Assembly (NCBI GenBank): GCA_964019425.1
Contig: OZ025795.1
Location: 124,001-188,000 of the forward strand
From: Flectonema sp. DT1601
Taxonomy: Eukaryota
Reading direction: 5' to 3'
DNA: 64,000 bases
The position numbers and the translations under genes are program-made. The stretch's first letter is position 1. Every line of letters starts with the position of its first letter. This document shows positions 18,390-52,866 of this stretch, one piece after another. The notes under the pieces are model-generated. The model saw only the letters and a list, made by a program, of their open reading frames with translations. It was not told the DNA's origin and searched no databases.

Positions 18390-21300
18390 CTATCGAAGAG
18401 GGAACTTGTGAAGCCCAGAAACAGTATCTCTGTGAACAACTGATTGGTAGATTGAGTTTTCTTCAAGCTCTTCGAGGTATCTCGAAGCTTCTCGGTACTC
18501 GTGTTGCTCCCAAGCTTTTTGTTGCATCTGCCATTGAGACTCGGCAACACATCGATGGATGTGAGAAGCGTCTCTGTCACGTATAAGAAGCGCTTCATCA
18601 AGATCGAGATCGTTCTCCTTCTGACGAACTGCTCTAAATCGATTCTCAACAACAATTCTCCTCTTTTCTTGTTGAAGTCTCCGTTCGACTTCGCGAAGTT
18701 TTCTCGTGTCGCGTTCTTTTCTCTGGACAATAGCCTTAGCTTCAGCTTCTTTCTTCTTTAACTCTTTTCGGTAAGCCTCCACTTTAGCAAGTCGTTCCTT
18801 TTCTTCTCGGGTTGCTTTTTTGTCAGCTTCCAGCTTTTTTACTCTCTCTTCGCGCTTCTTGAAGTCTTGTTCCTGCCTAAGGGCTCGTTGTTTGAGAGTT
18901 GACATAATTTCTTGATGAGTCGCTTCGTGTTTTTTCATGAGGCATTCCTCTTCGTACTGTCGCAGCTTTAGTTGTCGTTCGTACTCTTGTTCTTTACCAT
19001 GGCGAGCAGCCTCTACTTTGTGAACGTGAACAGTGAAAAGATCAAAGTGTTTGTGTGCTTTATTGGCGTACCTATTCCTATCTTCTTCTATTTGATTGGT
19101 AAGTAATAATGTTCTATTTATGGTATCGAAAACATTTTGTCTTCTTGCTGACTCCACCATCTCCAAACCTCGACGTGTTTCGTCGACAGCATTCAGTTCT
19201 TCTTCTCGTTTTTTCTGTTCTTTCTGACGTTCCATTTTTATACGACGTTGCTCTCTCATGATCAACAGGTTGAAAACATGTTTACGAGAGTGGAATCCAA
19301 GAGCTACCTTTCGTAATACATTCTCAGATTGTTTTCGTAAAACAGAAACTCGTTCGTTAAGAAGACGTAATATGTCAGTAGTTGTAAAGACACTGGATGA
19401 TATTCCAACTTGAAAGTCACCTCGTGGAAGGCTTAATTCCTGCTGTAGCTGTCCACATGCAGATGATGGAGGCGTAGTTGAGTTTTGGTTTTTTAGTAAG
19501 CAGCCATATTTTCTCAGAAAAACTTCAAATTTCTGAATCTTAGGAGCTGTTTGTAATAATCGAATAGTTGGGATCACTCCATTGCAGTGAAGTTGATTCC
19601 GCACCAAAGACCCTTCGAATACCTTCGGAACTTTACGTGAGTTCGGTTTTATACATCTGATCCACAGCGTTTCAGTACTTCTAATGCTGTCCAATAGTAG
19701 CCCAAGGTCTTCTTTAAAAGTTTGAGAAACCAATGCAGCCTGGCTGTATGTTGGTAGTATGCTTTGCATTGCTGACTTGCCTAAACATGTGAGCATTTCA
19801 TCCCGAACAGGAGATTTATTTTTTTGAATAGCATCCTTCACAGTATACATTACAGGTCCAGCATAATGAGAAATTATAAACGAGTCTCTCGGTTGGGAGG
19901 GTTTCGGCTTGTCAAAATGAGGATTTAATTTTTGTCTTCCCAACATGTAGTTTGAGTTTAAGTTTTCTAAAAATTTAGCATCAGATGTTTGCAGTTCTCC
20001 AAGGCTGCATTCGTCTTCTAGTATTCGGAGGATACCTCTTTTTGCTTCTACCAGTTCTAGACAAGAGCTATTGTCATCGAAGCGAGGTATGTCTATTGAA
20101 ACACCTTCGTCTCTGCAACGTTGCTCTAAATCATCAAACATCCTCGTGTTGTAGAAACTTTGAATCTTTTCATTCGCATAGTTTATAAGAAATTGTTCAA
20201 ATTTATTCTCTTTGAAATTTTCAAAACCAAATAAGTCCAAAATTCCTATCTTCGGAGTGTTTCGTGGGACATTTTCCACCTTAAGTGTTTTATTAATCTT
20301 CTCAACAAGAAACGCAAATAAAGATTTATACAAAAATTTTGCAAGACCATCACGCATTGCTGTCGCCTTTGTTATTGATAGTCGCTGTTGTACTTGTGAA
20401 CCTTTTATTGTTATAACTGACGTTGTTAAGAGAGAGATCAACTTCTCACTTGAAATTCCAAATAGATGGGCAGCTGAAACAACTGGAGTCTCATCGACGA
20501 CAGAGACCGAATCATCTTTACTCCCAGTTTTTGTAAATTCAGTATTTAATAAGTGAACAATACCAGCAATTGGTCTCCACAACAAGTCTTCCTGCATACC
20601 TTCATCAATCCCAATTGCTAACAATGCCTGTGTGACTTCTTTAAAGTTGTCATCATCATTAATACCTCCTCCAATCTTATTAGTAGATCCTGGGTTAAGA
20701 CATTTGAAGTCATTCGGTCTTTTGCCTGCTCCTAGTAGTCTGTTTCTCAGCTTCTCTGGTGCCTTGAAAAAGGCGTAAAAACTGTGAAAATTTCTCTCAG
20801 AACTTCCGTGTGATGTTATTCGGGTAATCTCGAGAAGGTAGGTGGAGATTTCAGAACCAGTGATTGAGAGGGTTGTTGGATCGAAGTAAAGAATTGTGTG
20901 TTTACCAAAACGAGATGAATTATCATTGCGGGCAGTCTTCGCATTACCAAAGACTTCAAGAATACAATTCACAGCCATCACACGATCTGCTATCGTCGGA
21001 TCTGATTCAGAAGCGACTGTTAAAAACTTCATCGCTGCTCTTGCTGATTCAGTTTTCCCCGCCCCCGACTCACCAGTTACAATAATAGTACTGGAAACAT
21101 TTGTCTCACACAGACGTCGGTAAGCTTCTCTCGCGAGGTGCCACGGATGTGCTTCAGGGTAGTTGTTATTATTCTCAAGAAGTTTTTTCATCCTCTTTTC
21201 ACCATAAATAGCACCATCACCAGGTATGTTATGAGAGTAAGGATTGACTATGATACAAATATCTTCACCCATTGAAACACAATACTTTTCAGAATTAAAA

Positions 21301-21545
21301 ATATTTTTTATATGTTGAAATGCGAGTGACTCGTGTACATCTGGACTCTCAAGTAAGTCATTCGGTTGAAGGCTAATCGAATCATTGGTGACTGCGAATA
21401 CTTGATCCATTGACAACAATCCGTCTTTACCTTTAATCTTTATTCGTACTTTCTCTCCGGAGCCGGTTGTAGATTCAATCTTCCCAACTAACCATCCCTG
21501 TTCAGAGTCTGTATGGAGAACCAAAGCCCCAGCAGTTAGGGTCAT
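18390..21545 (-). CDS. Unconventional myosin heavy chain (motor domain plus coiled-coil tail)
   Basis: P-loop GESGAGKT, switch I NDNSSRFGK, ERNFH, switch II LDLFGFE, WIRCIKPN; charged helical tail. Confidence 0.93.
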   Translation of the reverse strand: MTLTAGALVLHTDSEQGWLVGKIESTTGSGEKVRIKIKGKDGLLSMDQVFAVTNDSISLQPNDLLESPDVHESLAFQHIKNIFNSEKYCVSMGEDICIIVNPYSHNIPGDGAIYGEKRMKKLLENNNNYPEAHPWHLAREAYRRLCETNVSSTIIVTGESGAGKTESARAAMKFLTVASESDPTIADRVMAVNCILEVFGNAKTARNDNSSRFGKHTILYFDPTTLSITGSEISTYLLEITRITSHGSSERNFHSFYAFFKAPEKLRNRLLGAGKRPNDFKCLNPGSTNKIGGGINDDDNFKEVTQALLAIGIDEGMQEDLLWRPIAGIVHLLNTEFTKTGSKDDSVSVVDETPVVSAAHLFGISSEKLISLLTTSVITIKGSQVQQRLSITKATAMRDGLAKFLYKSLFAFLVEKINKTLKVENVPRNTPKIGILDLFGFENFKENKFEQFLINYANEKIQSFYNTRMFDDLEQRCRDEGVSIDIPRFDDNSSCLELVEAKRGILRILEDECSLGELQTSDAKFLENLNSNYMLGRQKLNPHFDKPKPSQPRDSFIISHYAGPVMYTVKDAIQKNKSPVRDEMLTCLGKSAMQSILPTYSQAALVSQTFKEDLGLLLDSIRSTETLWIRCIKPNSRKVPKVFEGSLVRNQLHCNGVIPTIRLLQTAPKIQKFEVFLRKYGCLLKNQNSTTPPSSACGQLQQELSLPRGDFQVGISSSVFTTTDILRLLNERVSVLRKQSENVLRKVALGFHSRKHVFNLLIMREQRRIKMERQKEQKKREEELNAVDETRRGLEMVESARRQNVFDTINRTLLLTNQIEEDRNRYANKAHKHFDLFTVHVHKVEAARHGKEQEYERQLKLRQYEEECLMKKHEATHQEIMSTLKQRALRQEQDFKKREERVKKLEADKKATREEKERLAKVEAYRKELKKKEAEAKAIVQRKERDTRKLREVERRLQQEKRRIVVENRFRAVRQKENDLDLDEALLIRDRDASHIHRCVAESQWQMQQKAWEQHEYREASRYLEELEENSIYQSVVHRDTVSGLHKFPLR

Positions 21546-21685
21546 TGTGTTGGTCTGACTTGAGAGAGATGAATATCATAATTATTCGCAGTGACTGTAC
21601 TAACATTTATAGCACTCGGATAATCAGCAAAATGGTGGTGTATTTTTTCATAGAAAAGGTGGAAGCTGTGAGCTGTCACCGATAC

Positions 21686-21728
<43 letters not shown>

Positions 21729-21862
21729 GAAATAAGAACGTTATGAGTGATTGTGAATGTAATTCACAATATAAAAAAAAAGGAAATCTGATTTTTTTGA
21801 AATTCAAGTCAAAAAAAAAACAGTTTTTCTATAGTAGTTTATACATGTAAAAGGAACCAAAT

Positions 21863-22501
21863 TTAGATACCCCCAACAGTAATTGTGTTGTATTCTTCTA
21901 TTCTGTGATAGCTTAACTTAGAAAGCGTTGCAGTCGATGATAACTCAGGGTTCTCAAAATCACCTGGAGGATAATTATATCTACAAATAGCTACTCCCCA
22001 CTGCTCTTCCTTTTTGGGAGCACATTCAAGTCCAAAAGCTGACCAGGGAACTAATAACTCAGCCGCCCAAACACCATCGTTGGATTGAACGATGTATTTA
22101 GACTTCGATGATTCCTTCACACATTCAGACCATTTTATATCACCTTTTAGGAACTTGTCTCTGTTTGGAATCTTTATGTCAGTAATAAGACTGTTTGGTG
22201 ATAAATGAATTTCCCAATATTCTCCTTCAAAACCTTCAGTTGTTCTCGTGTGATGAATAAAGAACTCCGCTACTGATCCTTTTAGGTAGAGTTCTTGTTG
22301 ATCAGCTGTTGCTGTTGTAAATGGTTCTTTCTCACAGAAGTAAGAATACATTAACAATCCCTGTTCTGTTTGCTTTACATAACCATGACCACCTTCATTC
22401 GGACCGATTCCACTTCCAGCCCATTTTTGCATTAATTTCATGGGTTCACAGTCCTTGTAAACCACCGGATGCGCACTTCCAACATCGGGAGATAGCGACA
22501 T
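21863..22501 (-). CDS. Carbohydrate-binding family 9-like (CBM9/DOMON-like) protein
   Basis: GSVAEFFI, YWEIHLSPN, WAAELLVPWSAFG, W..AICRY and final YH motifs resemble bacterial CBM9-like proteins. ATG at 22501. Confidence 0.6.
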   Translation of the reverse strand: MSLSPDVGSAHPVVYKDCEPMKLMQKWAGSGIGPNEGGHGYVKQTEQGLLMYSYFCEKEPFTTATADQQELYLKGSVAEFFIHHTRTTEGFEGEYWEIHLSPNSLITDIKIPNRDKFLKGDIKWSECVKESSKSKYIVQSNDGVWAAELLVPWSAFGLECAPKKEEQWGVAICRYNYPPGDFENPELSSTATLSKLSYHRIEEYNTITVGGI

Positions 22502-22773
22502 TTTCAAAAGCAGCTCTGAAAAACAAAAAAAAAGACTACTGACTGGTAGTTAATATGAACATCTCTTATAACTTTCATGATGAGGACATAATTTCCTATA
22601 ATGTCTCAACAGGTAGGCGACAGTTGAAAAACTATTCGCGATACTTTGTTTCTGTACAGTCTGTATGAAAGAAGGCAATATATTAATATAAACTATCACG
22701 TACACTATTCCGTTGGGTACAAAGCAAACAACTAACGCCAGTACGAAGATAAGCTTGAAAGGGAGTGGAGTGG

Positions 22774-22876
22774 CGCTACCCACATCAACAGAATGCAGCG
22801 AAGACTAGTTTGTTTGATTGCTCAAACCTAGTTTGGGGAGTGCCACAAGCGTATCACAATTAAGATTTCAGTAGCG
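22774..22876 (-). promoter_or_regulatory. SECIS-like element in the 3' UTR of GILT copy 1
   Basis: RNA folds as helix I CGCUACU/GGUAGCG, core GUGAU...UGAU (tandem G.A), 11-nt helix II ACGCUUGUGGC/GCUGCAUUCUGU, and apical arm ACUAG-GUUUGA-GCAA-UCAAAC-AAA-CUAGU. Confidence 0.8.
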
Positions 22877-23213
22877 TAAACACTTTCACTTTCCTATCAA
22901 AGCTGGATAATCATTCGTACTAAACTGCAGTCGGAATACCATTCAATGGAGTGTCCCGATATTAACGGAAAACTCAGCAATTAATATCGATAAACTCATA
23001 GTAAGTAAATAATACATTTTGACAGAACCTATGTGAACGAGCAGCTCAGTCAGCAATGAAAACACAAAACAGGAATCACACGTAAAAAGACCACCTCTTA
23101 TATATTAATGAACTCCGAAAACAAGAGACCTCAGAGTTAATCAAACGAGCGAAGGTACCAAAAGCTAAATTTTTTTTTTTTGCCCATTTCGGCTACGGCA
23201 GCAGTACTACTTT

Positions 23214-23888
23214 TTACAGCTTGCAGCCTTCTGGCTTAGTTCCGTTGTAGTCTCTGCAGATTACCTCCTTTAAAAGGTCAGTCTGCTTCAACACCTTTCC
23301 GTTGACAACGAGGTAAGGCACGTAATCCCTGCCCGGAACCAATGCCGTCTTCTTAGCAGCAGCAGCAGTCAAGGACTTTCCCTTGCTACCATTCATGCAG
23401 GCAGTTACATCAGACGGGTTCAGTCCCGAGATAGTTGCACACTTTTCCATTTGGGAAGTTGAAACCTTACCGTTAGCCTCGAGGCAGTACACGAAAGGCA
23501 TGTACTTCGAAGGGTCATCATTCAGCATGTCCTTCACACAGACTTCAGCCAAGTTTCCGTAACACTCCTCAGGTCCATGCTGACACACATTCTCTCCAGT
23601 GTAGCAGTCAGCAGCAGGGCTCGAGGCCGAAGGACCACAGTGCTTCAACCAGCACTCGAATCCCTGATTTCCTTCACATTCACTGATCTTTACGTAAGCG
23701 TTACCAAATGGAATGAAGTCGAAGTTCATGATGCCGATGAGTCCCGGTGCGGTCAGTGTGGAATTCACTGGTCCCTTCACCGTGGCGTCACATGCGGGTC
23801 AAAGAGCCTCTCCGTAGAAGTCAACGGACACCTTCTCCTGAGCGGAGGCGGTCACGGCGAGCATGGCAACAGCGAGAGCACGGTGCAT
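23214..23888 (-). CDS. GILT: GILT (gamma-interferon-inducible lysosomal thiol reductase) selenoprotein, copy 1, 224 aa; Sec TGA at 23799-23801
   Basis: Signal peptide MHRALAVAMLAVTASA, then VSVDFYGEAL-U-PAC (the CXXC position), FIPFGNA and the GILT signature CQHGPEECYGNLAEVC. The two listed ORFs are in one frame, separated only by this TGA. Confidence 0.9.
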
Positions 23889-24020
23889 TGTTGTAAAGGT
23901 ATTGAAGCTGAGGGGAGTACAATACAAAGAGTAGTAATATAATATACCAGAGATGAGATTGGAATAAATACGAAGAGTTTCCAACAAGTCACCAACTAGA
24001 AATAAAAAGAGACCATCCGA

Positions 24021-24123
24021 TAGCTAAGTACCCACATCCATCTGAATCTCTGGGACTAGTTTGTTTGATTGCTCAAACCTAGTTTAAAAGTGAGAAACAG
24101 ACTTCACAAAAGAGACATCGCTA
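24021..24123 (-). promoter_or_regulatory. SECIS-like element in the 3' UTR of GILT copy 2
   Basis: GUGAA-GUCUGUUUCUC...GAGAUUCAGAU-GGAU: same geometry as copy 1 with a different helix II sequence and an identical apical arm. Confidence 0.75.
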
Positions 24124-24590
24124 ACGGAGGGTGTTGGCCTCATAATATAATCAGGTAGGTGAATTGTGGCACTTGGGTAGTTCATTAACGATGCGAACAA
24201 AAGTAACTCCACAATTCGATTGTAAATACAGTAAGAGATTATTTATTGTGAACAAGAGCTTGCCCATAAGGAAACTTATAGACTTATAAATGCTCCCTCT
24301 CCATTTTAACACTAGTTTGACAAGCACCTTAAAATGAAACAACAAAGAGTCGTTGATTGTTAAACAAAAACACTAAAACATCTTCTTCCTTAACATTATT
24401 TTAGGATAGCATAAACTAACAATCAACTTCTTGAATTAGAACTTACATCAAACTAGTGTTTCAAAACAGAGTAATCATTAGTAGTAACACATTGTGTTGC
24501 TATTCGTGTTATAAAGGTGGTGGGTAATATATAGAATTCAGTAATAATATTGCGGAAAAGGTTCACAAGATTCACACAAAGTTATCTTTA

Positions 24591-25262
24591 CTACTTGCAG
24601 CCTTCTGGCTTAGTGCCCTTGTAGTCATCGCAGACGGTTTTCTTCAAGTCATCCGAGTTCTTCAACACCTTTCCGTTGACAACGAGGTAAGGCACGTAAT
24701 CCCTGCCTGGAACCAATGCCGTCTTCTTAGCAGCAGCAGCAGTCAAGGACTTTCCCTTGCTACCATTCATGCAGGCAGTTACATCAGACGGGTTCAGTCC
24801 CGAGATAGTTGCACACTTTTCCATTTGGGAAGTTGAAACCTTACCGTTGGCCTCGAGGCAGTACACGAAAGGCATGTACTTCGAAGGGTCATCATTCAGC
24901 ATGTCCTTCACACAGACTTCAGCCAAGTTTCCGTAACACTCCTCAGGTCCATGCTGGCACACATTCTCTCCAGTGTAGCAGTCAGCAGCAGGGGTTGAGG
25001 CCGAAGGACCACAGTGCTTCAACCAGCACTTGAAACCTTGTTCAAACTTGCATTCATCAATCTTTACGTAAGCGTTACCAAATGGAATGAAGTCGAAGTC
25101 CATGATGCCGATGAGTCCCGGTGCGGTCAGTGTGGAATTCACTGGTCCCTTCACCGTGGCGTCACATGCGGGTCAAAGAGCCTCTCCGTAGAAGTCAACG
25201 GACACCTTCTCCTGAGCGGAGGCAGTCACGGCGAGCATGGCAACAGCGAGAGCACGGTGCAT
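24591..25262 (-). CDS. GILT: GILT selenoprotein copy 2, 223 aa; Sec TGA at 25173-25175
   Basis: Same signal peptide, GEAL-U-PAC and CQHGPEECYGN as copy 1. Confidence 0.9.
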
Positions 25263-25395
25263 TGTTGTAAAGGTATTGAAGCTGAGGGGAGTACAATACA
25301 AAGAGTAGTAATATAATATACCAGAGATGAGATTGGAATAAACTACGAAGAGTTTCCAACAAGTCACCAACTAGAAATAAAAAGAGACCATCCGA

Positions 25396-25498
25396 TAGCT
25401 AAGTACCCACATCCATCTGAATCTCTAGGACTAGTTTGTTTGATTGCTCAAACCTAGTTTAAAAGTGAGAAACAGACTTCACAAAAGAGACATCGCTA
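25396..25498 (-). promoter_or_regulatory. SECIS-like element in the 3' UTR of GILT copy 3
   Basis: Near-identical to 24021-24123 (part of a duplicated block); about 205 nt downstream of the copy 3 stop. Confidence 0.75.
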
Positions 25499-25702
25499 AC
25501 GGAGGGTGTTGGCCTCATAATATAATCAGGTAGGTGGCTTGTGGTAACATTACTAAGCAGCAGCGGAGAGAGAGCTCACTCAAAGGTAATAATAATCACT
25601 ATTTGAGTATAAACGTGTTTTGGAAAAGATATTAAAGAAAGTCACAAAAAAAGAACATCACATTCACTCGTGGAATTTTGAATTTTTGGGTCAACACAAA
25701 TA

Positions 25703-26374
25703 CTACTTGCAGCCTTCTGGCTTAGTGCCCTTGTAGTCATCGCAGACGGTTTTCTTCAAGTCATCCGAGTTCATTAACACTTTTCCATCAACAACGAGGT
25801 AAGGAACGTAATTCCTGCCCGGAACCAATGCCGTCTTCTTAGCAGCAGCAGCAGTCAAGGACTTTCCCTTGCTGCCATTCATGCAGGCAGTTACATCAGA
25901 CGGGTTCAGTCCCGAGATAGTTGCACACTTTTCCATTTGGGAAGTTGAAACCTTACCGTTGGCCTCGAGGCAGTACACGAAAGGCATGTACTTCGAAGGG
26001 TCATCATTCAGCATGTCCTTCACACAGACTTCAGCCAAGTTTCCGTAACACTCCTCAGGTCCATGCTGGCACACATTCTCTCCAGTGTAGCAGTCAGCAG
26101 CAGGGCTCGAGGCCGAAGGACCACAGTGCTTCAACCAGCACTCGAATCCCTGATCTCCTTCACATTCACTGATCTTTACGTAAGCGTTACCAAATGGAAT
26201 GAAGTCGAAGTCCATGATGCCGATGAGTCCCGGTGCGGTCAGTGTGGCGTTCACTGGTCCCTTCACCGTGGCGTCACATGCGGGTCAAAGAGCCTCTCCG
26301 TAGAAGTTAACGGACACCTTCTCCTGAGCGGAGGCGGTCACGGCGAGCATGGCAACAGCGAGAGCACGGTGCAT
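25703..26374 (-). CDS. GILT: GILT selenoprotein copy 3, 223 aa; Sec TGA at 26285-26287
   Basis: ATG at 26374; GEAL-U-PAC; GILT signature present. Confidence 0.9.
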
Positions 26375-27000
26375 TGTTTGTGTGTTTTATAAGGCTGAGA
26401 AGGAATATTGATTAAAAGTAATTACGAAAGATATGAATATTCAGGGGAAGGATAGCTAACCAAACAACAATCACCAAAACTACTTGTTTAGTATCGCAAA
26501 GTGAAGAAACTAAATAATTAGCGCCACTCAGTCGTTGTTTCAAATATTTTAACTCTCAGAAATTGTCAAGCAGAAAAAAGAATTGAATTGGCCTTATCTT
26601 AAAACTATGCAGAAAATAGTAATATAACACCACCATGAACCAACTTAAACTGATAAAGCTAAAGGAGGTTTACGTGTGCTGCCAACATTCTATTTCTTTC
26701 TTACAATACTTGTTAAATGCAAAGAGAAAGGAAAAAAAAAAGGGAATATAAGACCAACGGCCGCAGAACTCTGAACAAAGAGTTGCGCCAACTGGTAAAA
26801 CATGTGCTTCAGTAATAATTTATCATTTAATAAAAAACACACAAGTGAAATAAATTGAACGGTAGTTAATTCAAACAAACAGTCATCTCACAGAAATCGG
26901 TTCATGTCAGTGGTTAGAGTGACTGATCAACATTCCTTCTTTGAAGGAATACAATTTCAGTGAATAATTGAAAGGTTTGTTGTGTTTGTTTGTATTGACT

Positions 27001-30000
27001 TCATTGAATATTGTGATCAAGTAATGGATACTTACCACCAAGTCTGTAAACACTCAACACCTCAGCCAAGTGAGGAGGGGACACTACTTCATTAGCTTCT
27101 TTACGCTCAGCTTTAGAGAGCAGTTCCATATTTTGTCTGATCGCAGTTTTTATGCCTTCTCTGTTAATCCTTGATAATGGAAACCCATACTGATCAATAG
27201 TCAAATCAATAAGTGTCTTATTTCTAAGACAGCTATTATCTAACGACCCTCCAAGTACTAAACGAAAAGCACTGTGACCCCTCTCATCAATAGCATTATG
27301 ACGAAGAGACAGAGAGAGAAGAGTTGTATTAAATCGCAAAGCCTCAGCTATTTGTTCAGCTCCGAAATTTTCAATTCTGTTGCAAAGCTCTCCAATAGCG
27401 ACAGTCATTATAAGAAATCCGAGGTCTAATTTACGAACTGTTTTATTTATCTTTAAGAACTCAGCAACATACGTAGATCCAACTGAACCAATTCCTGAGG
27501 ACGAAACATCCAACATCTCAAGCTTCATGTCCGTGACTGAAAATAACATTTTCGCACCTTCATCTCCCAGTCTATTACAACCCAAACCTAATGACCTGAG
27601 TCCTGTTGGCTTTCTGAGCATATCACAAATAGAAGGAATTGACTTGATAGTTATTCCATTACCATTTAAGTAAAGAACTTGTAAGTGTTTATTATCAGTC
27701 AATCCTTTCATAAGTATTTCTGTACCCTCATCAAGAAGACCTGTACAGGTTAGATCAAGAACTTTTAAGTGTCGATTTAATGAAATCATTTTTGATAAAT
27801 GAACAGCAGCAAATGGCTTCAGAGGATTTCTCTTCAGCCATAATTGGTTTACGTAGTCATCAGTTTGAAGAGCGTCACACAAAGGTTTAATACCAACGTC
27901 AGTTAAGTGATTACCTGCTATGTACCAAGTTGATACTGATGATGATTTATTTATTACCATGTCAGCTACCCCGTTACCAAGATTATCACCAGCAATGTTA
28001 TTACCCAACAACAAGTGTCTCACTTTACTTTGATTGTCATTTCGTAAGCTGTCAAGCAACGGTTCGATTCCCTTCGGACCGATTACCTGCTTACATAAAT
28101 CAAGACGACCATCACCGCACATGGTTCCTTTTGTAAATGCTATAAAGTCATTCGCTTTTTTAAGTTTATCAGCTGTTTTAATATAATCCAACACAGGTTG
28201 CATCTGAGTACCAGTTGCGATATCAACAGGTTCTGGTTCTGGATGAAGTATCATTTGTGATAGAGGAAGGTCAGATACTAATTGTTGATATTCTTGTTGA
28301 CTTCTCTGTTGATCGATAATGTTCTCCTTCCAGTTTGAGTAGATAATTGATTTCTTTAGATTGTAGTAATCAAGATTGTATTTGGTGTTTAAAATATCTT
28401 TTATTGATTTCACTACTTCATTAAACTTCTTAATCTTATCGTAGGTTGCCTTAGACGGTAATATTGATTCCATGTTACGAACTAACTTGTCACTCGTCAG
28501 TTTCACGAGTTCAGTTTTCTTCGCAGAGTAGGTACGACGAGTCTTCAAACAATGGAGGACACAATCTGACGGACGCTCACTTGTCGATGCGGATATACAT
28601 TTTTGGTAGTCTTCGTACAGCTTGTCAGCAATTAACTGCGACACTGTTTCCAACAACTCTCTGACGACTGGTTGTGAGCGATGGGATTCCTCATCCTGTT
28701 CTTGAACTACATCACAAAGACAGTTATTCTCTTTTTCACGAACATTTACCTTCCTAGAAGTTCCAGTACACGATAATAAACAAAGTCTTTCCATATCCTC
28801 CCAACCACCGTAGTATTGAATTGAATGAAGTAATTTCATTGTAATGTCAAAACGACTTTCTGATGTCGGCTGTTCATTTATAATAGCCCACCACAACCAA
28901 TAGACTGTCTGGTTAGAACGTTCCTGTAGTGTCACGTAGTCAGAATTAGATATTTCTTTTTTCTTAAATGGAGATCTCAATCTCTTTTTTCCAACATTTA
29001 CATACTGACACCATGAAAGAAGTAACAAGTCACTGTCTATTGTCTTTGTATCAACCGAAGGATGACCTCTCATTTCCTTAACGAATTCTCTAATGTCACT
29101 CTGTTGAAAACAGACATGAGGGTCTATAGCAATAGTCTTCCCTTTTGATTTACAAGTTTCCCAGAAAGTTGTTGTGAGTAAGAACTTGTTACAAATACCA
29201 ACAGGAATGAGTGGGAATAAATCATCTTCAGAACCTCTACACTTCATTGTTGATGATAGTTTTATTTGTAAGTCTGGTTCTGGTTGTGACTCCAGTGGAT
29301 TAATAATAACAGAACTATCAAATTGAGTATTGTCAGATACTTGAAGCTGGTCTAACCAGTTTGAGATGTCATCGATGGGCCATTTTCCAATCGCTTTTTT
29401 AAAATGATCACCAGAATGACTTTTAACTAACGGATTTCTAAACACCTGAGAGAGTCTAACAGTCCTATCTGATGGCATGATGGTATCTGTTTCTCCATAA
29501 ATATGAAATGATGGAATCTCAAGATTCATTGAAGTGCTGTGAAGGTCTTTAAAACGATCACGAGAATCTCTACATTCTCCACCAGAAATACAAATATAAC
29601 ATTTTGGAGTAAAGTACTTAGCCTTGTCTGAACCAGATGCCTGTAGTGAAGCCATTATAGCGGCTATACAGGCACCTTGACTGAATCCTATCACACATTG
29701 AAACGGACCGTTAATGTTAAAATAATTATTAAGATATTCAATAGATTCATCTAACCCTTCATAAATAAGATCACCTGACTCACTAGTTGTAGAGTTGTAC
29801 CAATGTCTTCCTGTGTTTGCAATCATTTGAACGTTTCCTTCTGAAAATGAACTTTTGTGAGGAGCGTCTGCGAACACGAATTCGACGTTGCTGTTTTTAC
29901 TGATTCCAGTCAGGGCTTGTTTTGCTGCTCTTGAGAAGCTTCTTCCATTTTGACGAAGTCCATGTAACACCAGTACTCTGATCAAACCAGTTTTTGTACT

Positions 30001-30639
30001 AACAGATTTCTCAGGAACGACGTTACTCTGTTTCGGAGATGACTTTGCCTCCACAGCAGAGATATACCTCATTTCAGATTGGGTTGATTCCCTTCCAAGT
30101 AATTCGTTGCGGAGAGGATCACGTTTAAATTTCTCGAGGATGCCACGCATTCGAATCGAGTCCTTAAAACATTTGTTAACACGAGTTCCAACAGAACTCC
30201 CAACACCACCATGATGACTTATTATTGAAGTAAATCCAACAATAGCTCTTCTAACATCAAACATGATCTCAGAATTACACAAAGCTATGTAAATAAAACA
30301 AATATAAGTCCACGGAAGTGATGAAATTGAAGCTCCGATATCGTCAGCTGCTGAATTTGATATTTTCGAAATGACTTCGTCGAATTCGAATCTTCTTTCT
30401 TTATTGATGACGCGGTGTATCTGACTTAGTAGTATTATTGAGGCTACCTTACCTTCGATACTACCTGACTCATTCCAGTCTTTCCATGTATTATCTTGTA
30501 TGTAGTTATTAAAAGTACTTCTCATATAATCAATTGTTTCAACTCGACTTAATCTTCTTTGTGAATCAACACATCCCCACCATAGTTTACTTCTCCATTG
30601 GAGATCGTCTCCGAACCAAAAATTTAAAACTTCGTTCAT
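27001..30639 (-). CDS. Multidomain protein: DUF924-like, FSH1-type serine hydrolase and RNI-like LRRs
   Basis: EVLNFWFG...RDPLRNELLGRESTQSE (DUF924-like); LVLHGLRQNG, GFSQG, HIYGETD and HSGDH (FSH1); C-terminal LxxLxLxxNxIxxxG repeats. Confidence 0.8.
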   Translation of the reverse strand: MNEVLNFWFGDDLQWRSKLWWGCVDSQRRLSRVETIDYMRSTFNNYIQDNTWKDWNESGSIEGKVASIILLSQIHRVINKERRFEFDEVISKISNSAADDIGASISSLPWTYICFIYIALCNSEIMFDVRRAIVGFTSIISHHGGVGSSVGTRVNKCFKDSIRMRGILEKFKRDPLRNELLGRESTQSEMRYISAVEAKSSPKQSNVVPEKSVSTKTGLIRVLVLHGLRQNGRSFSRAAKQALTGISKNSNVEFVFADAPHKSSFSEGNVQMIANTGRHWYNSTTSESGDLIYEGLDESIEYLNNYFNINGPFQCVIGFSQGACIAAIMASLQASGSDKAKYFTPKCYICISGGECRDSRDRFKDLHSTSMNLEIPSFHIYGETDTIMPSDRTVRLSQVFRNPLVKSHSGDHFKKAIGKWPIDDISNWLDQLQVSDNTQFDSSVIINPLESQPEPDLQIKLSSTMKCRGSEDDLFPLIPVGICNKFLLTTTFWETCKSKGKTIAIDPHVCFQQSDIREFVKEMRGHPSVDTKTIDSDLLLLSWCQYVNVGKKRLRSPFKKKEISNSDYVTLQERSNQTVYWLWWAIINEQPTSESRFDITMKLLHSIQYYGGWEDMERLCLLSCTGTSRKVNVREKENNCLCDVVQEQDEESHRSQPVVRELLETVSQLIADKLYEDYQKCISASTSERPSDCVLHCLKTRRTYSAKKTELVKLTSDKLVRNMESILPSKATYDKIKKFNEVVKSIKDILNTKYNLDYYNLKKSIIYSNWKENIIDQQRSQQEYQQLVSDLPLSQMILHPEPEPVDIATGTQMQPVLDYIKTADKLKKANDFIAFTKGTMCGDGRLDLCKQVIGPKGIEPLLDSLRNDNQSKVRHLLLGNNIAGDNLGNGVADMVINKSSSVSTWYIAGNHLTDVGIKPLCDALQTDDYVNQLWLKRNPLKPFAAVHLSKMISLNRHLKVLDLTCTGLLDEGTEILMKGLTDNKHLQVLYLNGNGITIKSIPSICDMLRKPTGLRSLGLGCNRLGDEGAKMLFSVTDMKLEMLDVSSSGIGSVGSTYVAEFLKINKTVRKLDLGFLIMTVAIGELCNRIENFGAEQIAEALRFNTTLLSLSLRHNAIDERGHSAFRLVLGGSLDNSCLRNKTLIDLTIDQYGFPLSRINREGIKTAIRQNMELLSKAERKEANEVVSPPHLAEVLSVYRLGGKYPLLDHNIQ

Positions 30640-30755
30640 AATGGTTGTTGTGTATTTGGATTTTTACTGAAAAAGGAAACTGATGATTGAAAGTAACTAA
30701 CTAAGTAAGGCTGATCGTTCAGCTAGTAATAACTACACCGTGTAAATGAATTAAC

Positions 30756-33562
30756 TTATGGCAGTACAGTAGTTATGACATATCCTAACATTCCTAAGGC
30801 TTGTCTGAATTTTGATAACTCACATTGCTCTCTAAATAAAATAAATAACTGAAGGAAGTCACTCGAACTCTTCTCAAGACCAGGTAAGTGTATTGAGACC
30901 GTCGGATGAGATAATGAAGTTGGTAACGGACACCAATCTGAACAAGAAAGAACACCTGGACGTTCCCACAGATGGCCGACTACAGAACACCTAAGAGAAA
31001 GAGACCAACAACGACTAATAAAATGTTTCCCTTTAGCAGAATCATAACAATGCGGTGCAGATATGTATCCGCTGTCTCGTAGCCTACGCAAAGCCTCATC
31101 GATACACTCAGTTGGAAGAGTTATTTTATTAATTTGTGAACACTGCTCTTCGTCATCCAGAGCCGACTCAAACATACCACAATATGATAAGACCCCAATA
31201 AGCCTTGGGCCTACTAGAATATCATAAGAGGTTTCTATCAAATTAGCAGCAGCCAAGAAACTAATCTCCTGAACTACATATTGCCTTGTGTTGTTCGCGA
31301 ATAAGTCTGTAGGAAAACCAAAAGAATTCGAAGGTATCTGTACATCGTTGGTTCTTATTAAACTACACTGTTCTAGAATGTGTAATAATTCACCAGGGAT
31401 GACCCTATCAAGATCCTCTTTAGAAGTATTTTCTTTATAAAGTGTTAACAGAATGAGTGATCCAAGAAAATCTGATGAACGTTGAGCCTCAACATATCCA
31501 ACATTAGATACCTGAGTATAGGTACTGCATTCTCTAAACAACGAGAAGGAAGCGTATTGATCAAGTCGCAGACAAGAACAAGCTAATCTCCAATCACTGT
31601 AAGTCAGAAAGTCTAAATCTCTTCTAAAATGGTTATATAATTCATCAGAATAATTAATAACACATTCAGGTATCGACAGCACTGTGTGAGACTGAATAAC
31701 TGTGAATCTCTGATACTGTTGTGGTGGGCTGATCCATATTCGATTGTTTGCAACTTGTAAAAAGCATCTACGAACTATCCTAATGTGTGCTTCATTTGTA
31801 AATACACAAACAGTAAAATCATTACATTGAATGTTACTGTGAGGAACTTTACACAGAACATAGTCAGATGAAATTGTGTGCGCTCGTACTGTTTGTTCAC
31901 CAAATTTAATACTAACTCCTCGGAGGCTGCAAAAATTCGAACCCTCGAACCTGATATGTTCACCTGCTGAACCAGTCACTGGTGCTACCAATCGAATACA
32001 TGGCTTTCTGAGTATTAAATCATTAATATCACTCTCTAAAGGATGTCCTGTAAGTCTCGCATACGCATCTGATAAAAAGACTGTAAACAACGTATCAACT
32101 TTATCCACAAGAGGTGCACTACTTGGTAACATACAATGAAACAATTCATTTCCAAATAGAGATGCCGCTAATCTCACGATAGCATCGTGAAACTCTGGTT
32201 CAATTATGAGAGTTTTATCTGATTTTTGTTTACTCGGATGTGAGGGATAAAGTAATGAAGATGCTCTTATTACTTTTTGAAGTACGACAGATGTAACTAT
32301 TTGGGGATAGATACAAATATACTTTGCGAAAGAAGCGAAACTTTCACTTCCCATAACACCCCTCCAATGACTACCATGAGAATCAATACCTTCGATTGTA
32401 TGTTGAGATTGCCAGCCAAGTTCTACTGCATCTTTAGTAACAAAACACTGAAAGAATTTTTTTAAAATTCCATTTCTCATATACATGTAGTCGTCAAGAT
32501 CTGTATTTTGCAGCCAGTCTGGATCAAAATTTTCCTTTGCTCCACTCGGATCAGACAACACATCGCTGTAGTAATGGTTATTTTTGTTTGTATTGAAATA
32601 AGCAATCTCCTCTCAACGATAATAAAAACAACGTACCTGTAATATCGAAGCAGGTTATCATCAATTAATTTTGACAACACTGCAATAGGAGTACGAGCGA
32701 ATGCAGACCTGTTTAAGTCATCCGAAAATGAAAGCAACAGTATAACAAACGATCTAAAACAAAGAGATGGCGAACACAATATTTCGATAAGTCTTGACGT
32801 TGCCGTTGACGGTTCCAATTTCGTATCATGCAAGAATGTTGATAATGATGCAGGAGAAAGTTCATCGCATTTAAAGACGTGAAGAGCTGCTTTGTATATT
32901 CTTAGAAGAGAAGTTCCAACTACTTCGTGTTTTTTTATTTCATTCACGAAATCAGAATGAGCTTTGAGAATGTTAGCTTTAGTTGTAAGACAACTATTAA
33001 TATCTCCGTGAAGTACTGAAGACTTGCGTGTTTCTCTCCTGGAACCTGTTGGTGAAACAACAGTTGCTCGTCGTGATGAAGTTCCTAATGAAGTTGCTAA
33101 TGATCTCCTTGTTCTGGGAAAGACTCTCATCGGTTCTGAATCAAGTATCACACTGGTGTCTGTTGATGCTTGACTTGTTCGAGAACCACTTCGGCGTTGT
33201 TGAGATGGTCGTCTGATATCTTCATTAAATAAAGATCTACGAGGAAATACTAACTCACCGTCACTTTCTGAGAAATTACTTTCCGTCCTCCGTCTTACTC
33301 GATACCCAACTGGTGGTTTCGGTTCCATCAATGACCCTCTTGGTGATCTCTTAGTACCAGTTGACGGACTGAGTATGAAACCATCTGTAGTAACTCTTTG
33401 CTTTGTTTCTCTTAGCGCTCCTACATAAGGTGACATTGTCAGTTTTGGTCTTGACAGTGATGTATTTATCTTTGCTTTTGCATGAATCGCATTTCGTAGT
33501 AATCTAAAACTAGATTCAGCCTTCGTCAAAGGTTTTATAATATCGAGTGAATCGTCAATCAT
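30756..33562 (-). CDS. Hypothetical protein with possible IPT/TIG domain; exons 33562-32637 and 32565-30756
   Basis: A 71-nt GTACGT...TACAG intron (32636-32566) joins the two ORFs in frame. PCIRLVAPVTGSAGEHIRFEGSNF...IKFG...CKVP resembles an IPT domain. Confidence 0.7.
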
Positions 33563-33851
33563 TGTGATTGTTGACTTGAGTTAGTAGTTGGCTTCGGTGA
33601 TGTTTAAAACATTATTTACACAAAGCTGTTATCTTCACCTGTGTGATAATATAATAACATGTGATAAATATACTTTACTCAACTTTTTATTATTATTCAT
33701 GCTGGCATTTTGCATTGAAGATTACAATACATCCCGAAAGACGAGAGGAATTTTTTGAGTTTTGTTTTTTTTTTTGTTTCACAAAAAAAAAAAAAAGTAA
33801 CGCGATCGAGGGCAATTTAATCAACTTGTGTGAAAGGATTGCTGGTAAATA

Positions 33852-33937
33852 ATTGCACGTTTCAGTGGAATGTAGCGGAAGACTAGTTTGTTTGATCTAG
33901 TTTTTTAAAATGATACATCCACGTCACGGATTGCAAT
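33852..33937 (-). promoter_or_regulatory. SECIS-like element in the 3' UTR of GILT copy 4
   Basis: Helix I AUUGCA/UGCAAU, core GUGAC...UGAA, helix II GUGGAUGUAUC/GCUACAUUCCAC, and a shortened apical arm ACUAG-AUCAAACAA-ACUAGU. Confidence 0.8.
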
Positions 33938-34220
33938 AAACAGTTGCCAACCATCTTTTCTTGAAGTCAATACATTGCGTCGTCTTCTGAAGCAGTACTT
34001 TACTGCTTTTGCGGCATTTAGAAATTGGTGAAAATCAAAAAGACTTTTAACTTTTAATAATCAAGTAAGGTGAGATTGTGGCGTAATACGATTAGTTTAT
34101 GTTGTAATTGAAAGAAAATAAAATTCAGAAAAAAATAAGCTGCCAAAAAAAGTTCGTACGCAGCAGCTACGAAATCTAGAAACAACTAACTGCGGGAATT
34201 GGAGGTCTTTTTTATGCGAT

Positions 34221-34895
34221 TTATAACTTGCAGCCCTTTGGCTTAGTTCCATTATAGTCTCTACAGACTGTTTCCTTCAAGAGGTCGGTTTCCTTCAGCA
34301 CCTTTCCGTTGACAACCAGGTAAGGCACGTAATCCCTGCCCGGAACCAATGCCGTCTTCTTAGCAGCAACAGCAGTCAAGGTTCTTCCCTTTTTGTCATT
34401 CATGCAGGCAGTTACATCAGACGGGTTCAGTCCCGAGATAGTTGCACACTTTTCCATTTGGGAAGTTGAAACCTTACCGTTGGCCTCGAGGCAGTACACG
34501 AAAGGCATGTACTTCGAAGGGTCATCATTCAGCATGTCCTTCACACAGACTTCAGCCAAGTTTCCGTAACACTCCTCAGGTCCATGCTGACACACATTCT
34601 CTCCAGTGTAGCAGTCATCAGCAGGGCTCGAGGCCGAAGGACCGCAGTGCTTCAACCAGCACTCGAATCCCTGATCTCCTTCACATTCATTGATCTTTAC
34701 GTAAGCGTTACCAAATGGAATGAAGTCGAAGTTCATGATGCCGATGAGACCCGGTGCGGTCAGTGTGGAATTCACTGGTCCCCTCACCGTGGCGTCACAT
34801 GCGGGTCAAAGAGACTCTCCGTAGAAGTCAACGGACACCTTCTCCTGAGCGGAGGCGGTCACGGCGAGCATAGCAACAAAGAGAGCACGGTGCAT
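34221..34895 (-). CDS. GILT: GILT selenoprotein copy 4, 224 aa; Sec TGA at 34806-34808
   Basis: ATG at 34895; FYGESL-U-PAC; GILT signature present. Confidence 0.9.
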
Positions 34896-35427
34896 TGTTG
34901 TGGAGGTGTTGAAGCTGAAAAGGGAAAACCAATCAAGTAGAACCATATTAGCAAACGAGTTCCAAAATACTTGTCCAAGTCTAACAAGTAGTGCTTCTTT
35001 CGTTTTTTTTTTTGTTCACTTTCATTCGTTTGTGGGGCTGTTTTTCAGCACAAATGGATTCCGCTTTACGAAGATTTCAAGGGCGTTTCCTTGCTGAATA
35101 ATCGCACGAAATTGTATCCGAAACAAGATTGAAAAAAAGATGACAACAGCGACAAGACATTCACGTAGAAACCATTCAGACAAGCCTTATATTTTGTTGA
35201 TCGCAGCTAGTTTTACTGGCGCACAGGGAAATAGATAACATGACATAATAAATAACGGTTCTTAATCTGAATAGTTTCTTCTCCGACTTAGTCGGTACAA
35301 AAAATAAAACTCAAAACAGCCTTCATCAACATCAAGAGTTTTATTATAATCAGAGTACAAGCCCCTCAAATTTGAAGGCATCGTATCATATATGATCTAG
35401 TAGGAAATCACAACGGATATGTGTCGT

Positions 35428-35700
35428 CTAACCAAATCGAGCTTCAACTGTGTATCCAAATCTTAAGACGCCATCTACTGTTGGAATATCTTTTAATTGC
35501 ATACCTGGATTTTGATAATCTGCATCATATGACCAGCAGTAGCAGTCTTTACCAACATCCAGAGTTAGTTTTCTAACTTTAAAAAAAACGTACAAGTCTG
35601 ACACCGTTTTCTCTCTGTTTTTTATTTCAACTTCGATTCCTTCATTCCCCAAAGCAAGTCCTCCAAATCCCCCTTGTTTGAAGACTGCAGTTACAGACAT
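35428..35700 (-). CDS. Small hypothetical protein (90 aa)
   Basis: ATG-initiated ORF on the coding strand with globular-looking composition. No family recognised. Confidence 0.5.
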   Translation of the reverse strand: MSVTAVFKQGGFGGLALGNEGIEVEIKNREKTVSDLYVFFKVRKLTLDVGKDCYCWSYDADYQNPGMQLKDIPTVDGVLRFGYTVEARFG

Positions 35701-36145
35701 TTTGTACTTTGGATGCCTAAAAACAAAATTATTGTTAACTAATGTTTATATAAGAACCTTCTCTTCCATTAAGCCGAAAAGACTAACGAAAAGAGTAGCT
35801 AGAAAGTGTTAGTTAGTTGGTTAGCAAAAATACAAAAACTGATGACTGTCCGCATCAGCAAGGACCCAATCACGAAGATTGTAGATTGTAGTTTTATAGC
35901 TTCGGTTGGAAGTGATCGACTCCCAGTGGCAAAAAAAAAAAACCAGTTGTTAGTTAGAGACCCGAAAAAGTTAATCAGTACATGTTTTCAGTAGGCGATA
36001 TGTAATTAAACAACGTACATAAATATTGTAGATGTGTTTTGCGACTAGGTTAGTACGGGATCACAAAAGCACTGATTACTACAATAAAACAATGAAAGAA
36101 ATTACAGGTAAAGAGCTATCGAAAGAGACAAAAAGCAGTAAATTC

Positions 36146-37282
36146 TCATATTGGAATTTTCTTCTTTTTAATACCACTATTCCGCAATGAAATAACCGCT
36201 GTGCAAGTCATAAATAAAAATAACACCAATAAGGTGTGCCAATTCGGAACAGGTCGTCCGAGAGATAAATCGAAGACAAGAGTTGCGATAGGTTCAAAAG
36301 ACATTATACCTGTGACGACAATAGGAGTGGAAAAACTTAGAGCCAATACTATGCTCCCTTGAAAACACGCAGTCAATAGAGCAACCAAGAACGTCGGAAC
36401 TGAATACCAAGGGTTAATCATAGCAAACAACCATGTTCCAATACTAAGTTCAGGATTGAAATAAAAAGAATTTAATAACAAAAAGACAGTCGACTGTGCG
36501 TACATCATTCCCATGAGAGGAACCAACGGAATATAATTACGTAAAGTCTTTACGAACATTAGATGAGCAGCATTGACACATGAGACAGCCAGACCTGCTA
36601 GCACTCCATACACAGAAGGTCCGAGAACTATTATAAAATAAGTAACAACCGTAAGTGCGATGTATAATGAATACTTCACTATCTGATCATGTTTTTGTTT
36701 ATCTTGTATCAGTGAAAACATCACTGTAAACAAACAAGAGCAATTCGTAAGCACAGCCGTAACTTCATCACCAGCATAGTCCAAAGCCAACTGAGCCATA
36801 ATACTGACGACTCCGTGAGTGATCCCAGCTAGTAAGAGTGTTGTTATGAGTTGTTTATTGTTTTCATCAGTAAAATGTTTTAATATTTGATTCACATCAC
36901 CCAAAGGTATCCCAATGTTCGACTGTTGCTGTAGAGCTACTGCACACAATAACGTAAGTACTAAGTTACGTGTTCCAACTTTTAGCATCGGATTTTCTTC
37001 GTACATATCCATGAGAGGGAAGACTAATCCTCCACAACAAGTTCCAAATAGCGCTAATCCAACACCGAGATATGCTCTGTGAGGACCACGAGCAATAGAT
37101 TCCCATTCTGCTAAAAACTTCTCAGCATTGCCGCGTTTACTCTTTTTCAAACTCAACAACTCTGCAGGTGTATCAGGAAGGGTTTCGATGGAATCATTTC
37201 TCGAAATATCTAACAGCACATCTTCTTGAAGCTCTTCAGGTCGGAGCCGTGGATGCCTACTATGACTTGTTGTCTGTTCCAT
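36146..37282 (-). CDS. DMT/EamA-like multi-pass membrane transporter
   Basis: About 10 hydrophobic segments; the motif VVTGIMSFEPIATLV..LG is typical of EamA. Confidence 0.7.
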   Translation of the reverse strand: MEQTTSHSRHPRLRPEELQEDVLLDISRNDSIETLPDTPAELLSLKKSKRGNAEKFLAEWESIARGPHRAYLGVGLALFGTCCGGLVFPLMDMYEENPMLKVGTRNLVLTLLCAVALQQQSNIGIPLGDVNQILKHFTDENNKQLITTLLLAGITHGVVSIMAQLALDYAGDEVTAVLTNCSCLFTVMFSLIQDKQKHDQIVKYSLYIALTVVTYFIIVLGPSVYGVLAGLAVSCVNAAHLMFVKTLRNYIPLVPLMGMMYAQSTVFLLLNSFYFNPELSIGTWLFAMINPWYSVPTFLVALLTACFQGSIVLALSFSTPIVVTGIMSFEPIATLVFDLSLGRPVPNWHTLLVLFLFMTCTAVISLRNSGIKKKKIPI

Positions 37283-46200: not shown

Positions 46201-47121
46201 GTCACCAGATCTGCACCCAAAGGGAGCAGGTAAGGCATCAGCTTGCAATACGACTTTCTCATCATGTGTCTGAAATTACTTCAAAGGAGATACATCAAGA
46301 GATTCTTGTACACGTGGGTGTGCGTTAATTCCATATCCGGAAGGAACGCGACCGTATTGCGTACTTTCTAAAAAGAGATTGGGAACTTCTTCAACAACAC
46401 ACAAAAAGGATCAGCAGGGAAGCAGGAACACGACAGACAAAGCAACGCTCAGACACGAAAGCTACGTCAACAAATAGCATTCAGGTGACTCACGGTCTGC
46501 AGAACTATGAGATCGGCTTTCTATCTCGTCAATCATTCGCGTTGCTATTTTCCTCCTTTTTTCCAACTCCCACAAAAACGCAGAAAAGATGTCGCACACA
46601 CAGAGCTCAGACAGCAGGACGGTAGTTGCAGTTTGGTTTCATGAGTAAAGGTTGGAAGCCATCAAATATTATGATAAGGTGATCATCTTCGCTCTGAATG
46701 ACGACAATTTAACGGAAATAACGATGATGGTTACTCGAATAGTAGTTTTTATGTAGATGACAGTTTTCAATGGATAACTTTGACTAAAATACTATGAAAC
46801 CTGTAGAATAAGGAGACTTGATAAAAGGCTTTCTAAGCAACTCATCATTCAGCACTCATGATAAACCGAATGGCTGGTTTGGGGGGGCGGGGGGAACTCA
46901 TCATCTTTTCTCATCAAATGTTGTTTGAAAAGATCTTCTTCGTACTTTGGGTTTCCCCAATTTAATTTAATCATTTATTATTTTTTTGTTTTTTTTATGA
47001 GGTTTTTTTTTAACTTTTTTTTGTTTTTCGTGGTTTTTCACCTGCAGCCCTTGCAGGAAGATAACAACTTCTTGCGGACGTAAAAACAAGGCTGCAGAAG
47101 TGCAAATATAAACAACGCTTC

Positions 47122-48300: not shown

Positions 48301-48495
48301 TTTAATAAGGTAAGTTGTGAGATAAACCTGCTAAATAAAAGATTATAATATCTGATGACACTGTAGACTGTTAACTAATGATTTAAATCCAGGTGATCCT
48401 TCCTAATGACAAAATAAAAAGGAACCCTTAATGGAATTCATCCCTTGAGTAACCGCACAAATGACGGTGCGAGCAACAGAATAGTTGAAAGCATT

Positions 48496-49674: not shown

Positions 49675-49943
49675 TTTAAGGAGTAAGAGATGTAATCTAA
49701 TAGAGGAGAAATAAATTGTTGACCAGTCTTCTAAACCACAGTTAGGCTAATCTACTTAATTGATAAGCCTCATGTATCTGTTTAAAGTTTTATATTTATG
49801 CGGAGTAACCTGATAGAAGTGAAGAAGTATTTCCCTGCTAAGACTAAATAACAACAATTGCCTAATAACCTGCCTTAGACATTAACTTGGAAGCTCTCCA
49901 TAAAAAGAGAGATTTCTGACTTGTAAAATTGATAAATCCAAAT

Positions 49944-52396: not shown

Positions 52397-52866
52397 TTTG
52401 TGGCAATAAAGAAGAATCTGAAGTGGAAATAAACAATAAGTTGACCACACCTCATTACAAATATGAGATCAAAATCAAATAAACATATCTTCAAACAAAT
52501 GAACTGATATCATTACAACAATGATTCAAACAATACAAAACTGTTGAAGAACAGAACAAAAACAAACGTGTAAATGACTTATGTAAATGGCACATTAAGG
52601 ATGAACTCATTCAGCTAGTTGTGCCACTACATAATAATTAGAAACAAAACAACGAGAGAATAAATAACATAGAACATGTATTTCATAAAAAGAACATATA
52701 AAGCTGACTCCCTTTTGATCATTTGGCATAAAGAAACCAATTAAAGTAGCTCACTATCTCACTCCTGATGAGGTACCACAGGCTGCTGAAAAGCAGAGTG
52801 AATCGAAACTTTTATATATAAAAAAAAGAATCCTCCACCAAAACTATTTTTGAGAATCATGCCATG

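Follow-up and report, generated by a model that had tools for sequence, protein, structure and literature searches.

Putative selenocysteine-containing GILT genes with atypical SECIS-like elements in a Flectonema-like diplonemid

What does it mean when four related genes carry a TGA at the same internal codon, at the very position of the catalytic cysteine of their enzyme family? The question is raised by four GILT thiol reductase genes, here g1 to g4, in a 64,000-nucleotide (nt) stretch of Flectonema sp. DT1601 (contig OZ025795.1, positions 124,001 to 188,000; the window, below). In all four, codon 30 is TGA in the context FYGE(A/S)L-TGA-PAC, followed by 193–194 open codons, and the coordinates and motif given in an earlier sequence-only reading of this DNA proved correct. 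We conclude, with a probability of roughly 0.88, that g1 to g4 are selenocysteine (Sec) GILT genes of a Flectonema-like diplonemid, their TGA being likely decoded as Sec by way of a nonstandard Sec insertion sequence (SECIS). Support for Sec, the recoding also favoured by the sequence-only reading, comes from the placement of the TGA at the catalytic Cys, from SECIS-like elements that follow each of the four genes and from homologues that appear cut in the same manner in three diplonemid species. Sec-GILT as such has been described before; new here are the diplonemid lineage, the amplification, a four-cysteine insertion and the atypical SECIS.

The in-frame TGA and the encoded protein

Read through the TGA, g1 matches the Pfam GILT domain (PF03227) with an E-value of 5e-21 (75.4 bits, against a gathering score of 22.4), and among 177,635 solved sequences its sole match at E ≤ 1 is mouse GILT (6nwx; E 5e-17). 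The structure model of g1, computed with C in place of U, reaches a predicted local distance difference test score of 93.7, and its top fold match in Foldseek is again mouse GILT 6nwx (E 2e-12; template modelling score 0.70–0.71 by query length). In this model, the TGA falls after the first strand and before the first helix; it aligns without a gap with the first Cys of the CxxC both in 6nwx and in Cys-containing diplonemid paralogs, which agrees with its proposed position at the nucleophilic Cys of GILT. Provided that the TGA is decoded, the CxxC/S active site of the family is represented by U30-P-A-C33; the signature CQHGx2ECx2Nx4C, described for GILT in the available portion of PMC7017176, is intact at residues 102–117. 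Of the leader and downstream domain that had both been called intact, the domain stands, and the leader is signal-peptide-like as judged by hydropathy (hydrophobic residues at about 4–13). The copies carry two or three N-glycosylation sequons each, at N42 and at N166 or N215, and the predicted mature mass of 22.1–22.6 kDa fits the band near 22–24 kDa that had been anticipated.

Fold and signature, together with a predicted leader peptide and sequons, are shared with GILT/IFI30 of animals (mouse 6nwx) and OSH1 of plants. These differ from the window proteins in having Cys for Sec and in lacking the insertion of four cysteines, a feature common to a protist subfamily and missing from standard GILTs; in the window proteins, moreover, the leader passes directly into the domain. 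The CKL with which g1 and g4 end could be read as a peroxisomal signal; this was set aside, the Cys being a conserved structural residue and g2 and g3 having no L at the end.

A general change of the genetic code is rejected, since TGA terminates other genes of the window in the ordinary way and Trp and Cys are encoded as usual. Seven of the 22 other open reading frames (ORFs) examined in the window end in TGA, with the next in-frame stop 0–60 codons beyond, and all four of the neighbours previously listed (27001, 36146, 38562 and 54395) are among them; the codon counts are 143 for TGG, 69 for TGC and 185 for TGT. The recoding would therefore be site specific, as had been argued. An assembly artefact was likewise rejected, the four copies differing at 74 alignment columns and having unrelated untranslated regions (UTRs).

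The fourfold occurrence of the TGA should not be overrated. The copies are 92–96% alike, with 29–56 differences per pair over about 672 bases, and the four TGAs therefore count as one inherited character, not as four independent observations; the independent evidence lies in the UTR elements and in other species. The ratio of nonsynonymous to synonymous differences (pN/pS) is 0.26–0.44 over the whole genes, which have no frameshift; over codons 1–54 it ranges from 0 to 0.73, on 1–9 changes per pair, and is little informative. The patchy distribution of the variable columns, together with a metatranscriptome contig in which the coding end is of g1 type and the UTR of g2 type, suggests exchange among the copies.

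SECIS-like elements behind the genes

The motif common to all four 3' spacers forms the apex of a stem-loop whose core strands are GUGAN and KGAW and which lies 805–1068 nt downstream of the TGA. All four elements agree with the published SECIS core UGAN/KGAW (PMC3753652, as far as available), and their helix II, with 11 nt on one side and 11–12 on the other and 9–10 pairs, lies within the canonical 10–13 nt. The sequence of helix II differs between g1, g2/g3 and g4 yet continues to pair, in 88% of 42 cells and with two-sided changes at 6 of 11 pairs, a value reached by 0 of 500 shuffles and compared with 19–59% in slid controls, although a structure derived from the very sequences it is tested on is favoured by such a test. 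Below the core, a helix I of 6–7 pairs can be drawn in each of the four, with a 3' spacing in g2 and g3 of 11–13 nt versus the 3–10 of the pattern; helices this short easily arise by chance. Outside the element the UTRs are otherwise unrelated, apart from the duplicated block in g2 and g3: the best local UTR match is the element apex in four of the six pairs, the shared 280-nt block in g2–g3 and an unrelated short match in g3–g4.

How specific is this structure? An initial loose scan gave 19 matches on the minus and 21 on the plus strand of the 64 kb and was too loose to be used alone. A covariance model built from g1 to g3 recovers the g4 element as the sole other match below E 1 in 128 kb; it finds no further element in the window and, at E ≤ 2, none in the 32 of 80 metagenome GILT loci against which it was run. 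A generic scan for core plus helix matches all four GILT spacers versus 1 of 20 other spacers (one of these, of 11.5 kb, contains intron-bearing genes), and among shuffled UTRs it matches 11–32 of 500. A second long inverted repeat, with 32-nt arms that are 75% complementary and also with a CTAG motif, lies in the g2 3' spacer at 24289–24479.

An outside check on the generic scan is provided by metagenome GILT loci. Among the best 80 of 204 such loci, many of them redundant, the catalytic position is Cys in 74, TGA in four and not covered in two. The TGA-bearing loci (L005:107, L007:783, L039:110 and L061:223) read CTE[AS][FL]-U-PGC, with an extra Cys five residues upstream, and carry AUGAC...UGAA hairpins, with the usual placement of AA in L039 only. 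The generic scan finds a match in three of these four, versus three of 44 distinct Cys-bearing loci with at least 120 nt downstream (Fisher p 0.004). The four differ from the window copies in their AUGAC cores, in having no four-Cys insertion and in forming a clade of their own (support 99) with a shortened protein, P0011; the window copies, for their part, are diplonemid, tandemly amplified and furnished with GUGA cores and an enlarged apex. The latter is not diplonemid specific, as the element of L061 shows one too. For P0011 alone, this placement supports taking a protein start shortly after the site as an indication of a TGA.

Several observations weigh against the Sec interpretation. All four elements fail the four SECISearch1 patterns (PMC3753652, supplement S1) because A(C/U)U replaces AA, the first AA follows the core at a distance of 16–18 nt and the apex is enlarged, with 58–65 nt between the core strands where the patterns allow about 55; in none of the four is an unpaired AA, AG or CC found at 10–13 nt from the core, and the apical part exceeds the canonical limit of 25 nt after AA. 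Rfam at E ≤ 10 over 21000–37000 gives no SECIS and merely four chance-level matches, a miss that says little because Rfam is also weak on the control loci, where it matched one of the four TGA-bearing ones, below the gathering score. In folding energy the elements do not stand out from shuffles (z −0.6 to −1.2), both the structure and the thresholds of the scan were fixed with the elements already known, and the g2 and g3 elements belong to one duplicated block, which leaves three independent versions. As those of g2 and g3 end about 130 nt before the predicted acceptor of the next gene, their presence in the mRNA is a prediction. Among sequencing runs, one marine metatranscriptome shared 0.07 of the words, and of the six contigs placed, none from this organism crosses the TGA or a SECIS-like element. 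The 64-kb window contains no tRNA gene. Finally, the shortened homologues discussed below are proteins without DNA, whose stop codon is deduced.

On balance, the element probably acts in the manner of a type II SECIS, though it cannot be filed as canonical. With eukaryotic type II SECIS, including the divergent ones of trypanosomatid SelT and SelTryp (PMC1557815, available in part), it shares the UGAN/KGAW core, a helix II of 11–12 nt, an upper mini-helix, the 3' position and, tentatively, a lower helix; it differs in having A(C/U)U for AA and in an AAA 16–18 nt from the core, beside a CUAG/CUAG mini-helix.

Relatives and rival explanations

Two protein homologue searches returned 11 and 29 proteins. 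At 90%, the public gene call of g4 falls into one cluster with an ORF from the transcriptome of Flectonema neradi, and nine of ten neighbouring proteins queried were found in the collection, the kinase clustering with F. neradi and the other eight being singletons. The window DNA is, by these sequence matches, close to but not identical with the F. neradi transcriptome data set, which narrows the euglenozoan host of the sequence-only reading to a diplonemid near Flectonema. The public gene calls of the window GILT genes give products of 170–171 residues, the truncation that had been expected of automated annotation, and eight named diplonemid ORF clusters (one from F. neradi, three from D. ambulator and four from D. 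japonicum) similarly start at a Met behind the catalytic position. The same N-terminal cut is seen in clade members merely 55–64% identical. In both trees (37 rows, and 82 rows with a support of 97 by a quick method), seven of the eight shortened ORFs group with the window copies; P0022 is unstable and shifts between two diplonemid subclades. Full-length Cys GILTs occur in named diplonemids as well (P0023 of F. neradi and P0025 of R. euleeides). Together with P0024 and P0043, they resemble the window copies in belonging to the insertion subfamily, being 42–47% identical and joining them in one diplonemid clade (support 96), and differ from them in their CPFC/CPYC site and full-length gene calls. 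Gain and loss of Sec are indistinguishable from the two trees. More broadly, a 50% library gave 1576 relatives, and the best 150 of these, in a ranking that favours long matches, comprise 79 of the CxxC type, 46 whose start falls after the catalytic position but before PFGN, 17 of other forms and eight without the PFGN motif; the 46, again proteins without DNA, are only suggestive.

Could the UGA be read as something other than Sec? A near-cognate tRNA or a local signal unrelated to SECIS might insert Cys or Trp, the UTR element being some other regulatory motif, and the failure of that element under the canonical apical rules would then be no surprise. Two of the 150 relatives, P0070 and P0155, do have W at the catalytic position (WPEC), either a real Trp or, perhaps, a TGA rendered as Trp by the gene caller, and UGA can mean both Trp and Sec in Blastocrithidia (PMC12153298, in the text available). 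Yet a Trp at codon 30 would abolish the nucleophile, TGA ends other ORFs in a window where Trp and Cys have their standard codons, and the 44 nt behind the UGA fold no better than shuffles (z 0.39). Core and helix II, moreover, are maintained through compensatory changes, and the same generic scan separates TGA from Cys loci in other organisms. We therefore regard such a reading as quite improbable. Slightly less credit still is due to a single nonsense mutation that preceded the amplification and left either pseudogenes or a 170-residue product, starting at Met55 and devoid of signal peptide and active site. Given the likeness of the copies, one event could indeed account for all four TGAs, and the public gene calls are exactly such products. 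The overall pN/pS and the intact frames speak against decay, however, and so do the SECIS-like elements behind each gene and the identical cut in distant clade members. The stretch before the TGA is strongly conserved, 8–10 of the 12 residues at 18–29 being shared with six Cys homologues (after Met55, 72–78 of 170), and a product starting at Met55 would lose strand 21–27 and helix 32–47 of the model.

The least credible of the alternatives, in our view, is that cis-splicing or RNA editing takes the TGA out of the mRNA. Cis-introns do exist in this genome, in the kinase at 14485–12930 and the uS7 copies, and diplonemids are known for noncanonical introns (PMC12621601, in the part available); nevertheless, the alignment across the site leaves no gap to fill, and the transcriptome ORFs of the three diplonemid species start behind the site, being labelled "complete" in all seven of the eight with a readable label. 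The label fits a stop retained in the RNA, but the refinement of starts by the ORF caller could also produce it.

Genomic setting, proposed mechanism and meaning

The features of the GILT genes are collected in Table 1. The likely CAG acceptors, each behind a pyrimidine-rich tract, are of the kind expected from spliced-leader addition (PMC10161547, as excerpted).

Table 1. Positions of the GILT genes and associated features in the window
Feature	Position	Strand	Remarks
GILT paralog g1	23214..23888	minus	224 codons; UPAC active site if TGA is decoded; TGA 23801-23799; true stop TAA
GILT paralog g2	24591..25262	minus	223 codons; TGA 25175-25173; true stop TAG
GILT paralog g3	25703..26374	minus	223 codons; TGA 26287-26285; true stop TAG
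GILT paralog g4	34221..34895	minus	224 codons; TGA 34808-34806; true stop TAA
Predicted signal peptide, g1	23841..23888	minus	residues 1-16; hydropathy and alignment; cleavage site by eye; same in other copies
Four-cysteine insertion, g1	23604..23678	minus	C71, C79, C84, C95; between PFGNA and CQHG; alignment
SECIS-like element, g1	22784..22857	minus	core to core; 357 nt behind stop
SECIS-like element, g2	24036..24107	minus	484 nt behind stop; inside block duplicated with g3
SECIS-like element, g3	25411..25482	minus	221 nt behind stop
SECIS-like element, g4	33861..33927	minus	294 nt behind stop; shorter apex; found with g1-g3 model, E 9e-4
Likely spliced-leader acceptor, g1	23908..23910	minus	CAG after pyrimidine-rich tract; 19 nt before ATG; putative function
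Likely spliced-leader acceptor, g2	ending 25282	minus	CAG; 19-20 nt before ATG
Likely spliced-leader acceptor, g3	ending 26395	minus	CAG; 19-20 nt before ATG
Likely spliced-leader acceptor, g4	ending 34915	minus	CAG; 19-20 nt before ATG

The window is AT-rich, and every long ORF with a Pfam match is on the minus strand. The protein kinase gene at 14485–12930 (minus) is interrupted near 13797–13581 by an intron of the GT-AG type, some 215 nt long, confirmed by exons that are 96% and 92% identical to an F. neradi protein. Three tandem copies of an intron-containing gene for the ribosomal protein uS7 (S5e; Pfam) occupy 47100–52500 on the minus strand; two of the copies contain a 182-bp unit twice and the third contains it nine times, possibly through assembly expansion. 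Between 41400 and 47000 lies an array of blocks, 99–100% identical and spaced at 1.7–2.1 kb, with no long ORF, and the minus-strand gene at 27001–30639 encodes a 1212-residue protein combining DUF924, an FSH1 serine hydrolase and leucine-rich repeats. At 30756–33562 and 54395–61329, long ORFs occur in two pairs whose members share a few bases at a stop (32477–32486 and 60868–60871), reflecting introns, frameshifts or sequence errors.

From euglenozoan biology, one would expect g1 to g4 to be transcribed polycistronically and to receive a spliced leader at the AG 19–20 nt before the ATG. An SBP2-type protein would then bind the tandem G.A/A.G core and Sec-tRNA would decode codon 30, while the 16-residue leader would route the protein into the endoplasmic reticulum, where the sequons may be glycosylated. 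By analogy with GILT chemistry, U30 would attack a substrate disulfide and C33 resolve it, and the likely task of the UxxC enzymes would be to reduce disulfides of proteins in a compartment that is acidic and either secretory or digestive. Unlike a thiol, a selenolate remains ionised at low pH and is the better nucleophile there. Copy number may raise dosage, and gene conversion may homogenise the coding parts, with the UTRs drifting apart except in the SECIS; more speculatively, the Cys paralog with its CPFC/CPYC site may serve under selenium shortage.

Sec-GILT was described in 2008 from three ocean sequences, one of them with a SECIS (Zhang and Gladyshev, PMC2398784), and was counted in 2020 among the least widespread algal selenoproteins (PMC7539508), both papers being available in part. 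The four TGA-bearing metagenome loci are of this kind. Compared by description, those marine proteins and the window copies have in common the GILT domain, the UxxC, the TGA at the first Cys and a SECIS, or SECIS-like element, in the 3' UTR. In kinetoplastids, the known selenoproteins are SelK, SelT and SelTryp, some with an atypical SECIS (PMC1557815 and PMC12153298, in the portions available). For diplonemids, the automatic annotation in the supplementary table of PMC10161547 gives selenophosphate synthetase (SelD) in four species, in 1–3 copies, and an expanded GILT orthogroup (2, 2, 15 and 1 copies), with none in the listed kinetoplastids. We found no report of a diplonemid selenoprotein or diplonemid Sec-GILT in literature where subscription journals are thinly covered and a prior mention is possible; no word beginning with "selen" occurs in the main text of PMC10161547, and in the supplement files covered of two diplonemid papers, PMC7052976 being one, no such report was found.

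If the Sec reading is true, g1 to g4 represent a selenoprotein family undescribed for Euglenozoa in the literature searched, where SelK, SelT and SelTryp are those of trypanosomatids, and the published table records the GILT expansion in diplonemids without mention of selenium. The relatives belong to named, cultured organisms; the 2008 study had anonymous reads only. Three natural versions of an atypical SECIS would test how far the apical adenines can shift from the kink-turn core, their distance from it being an open point in Sec recoding, and the elements can serve as a seed model for other diplonemid selenoproteins. More tentatively, and somewhat against the odds, diplonemids may have a lineage-specific, enlarged SECIS with adenines 5–7 nt off helix II, missed by pattern tools and hiding a selenoproteome richer than that of trypanosomatids, and Sec-GILT may be a common digestive selenoenzyme of marine protists. 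If abundant marine heterotrophs do put selenium into a multicopy digestive enzyme, this would bear on the marine demand for selenium.

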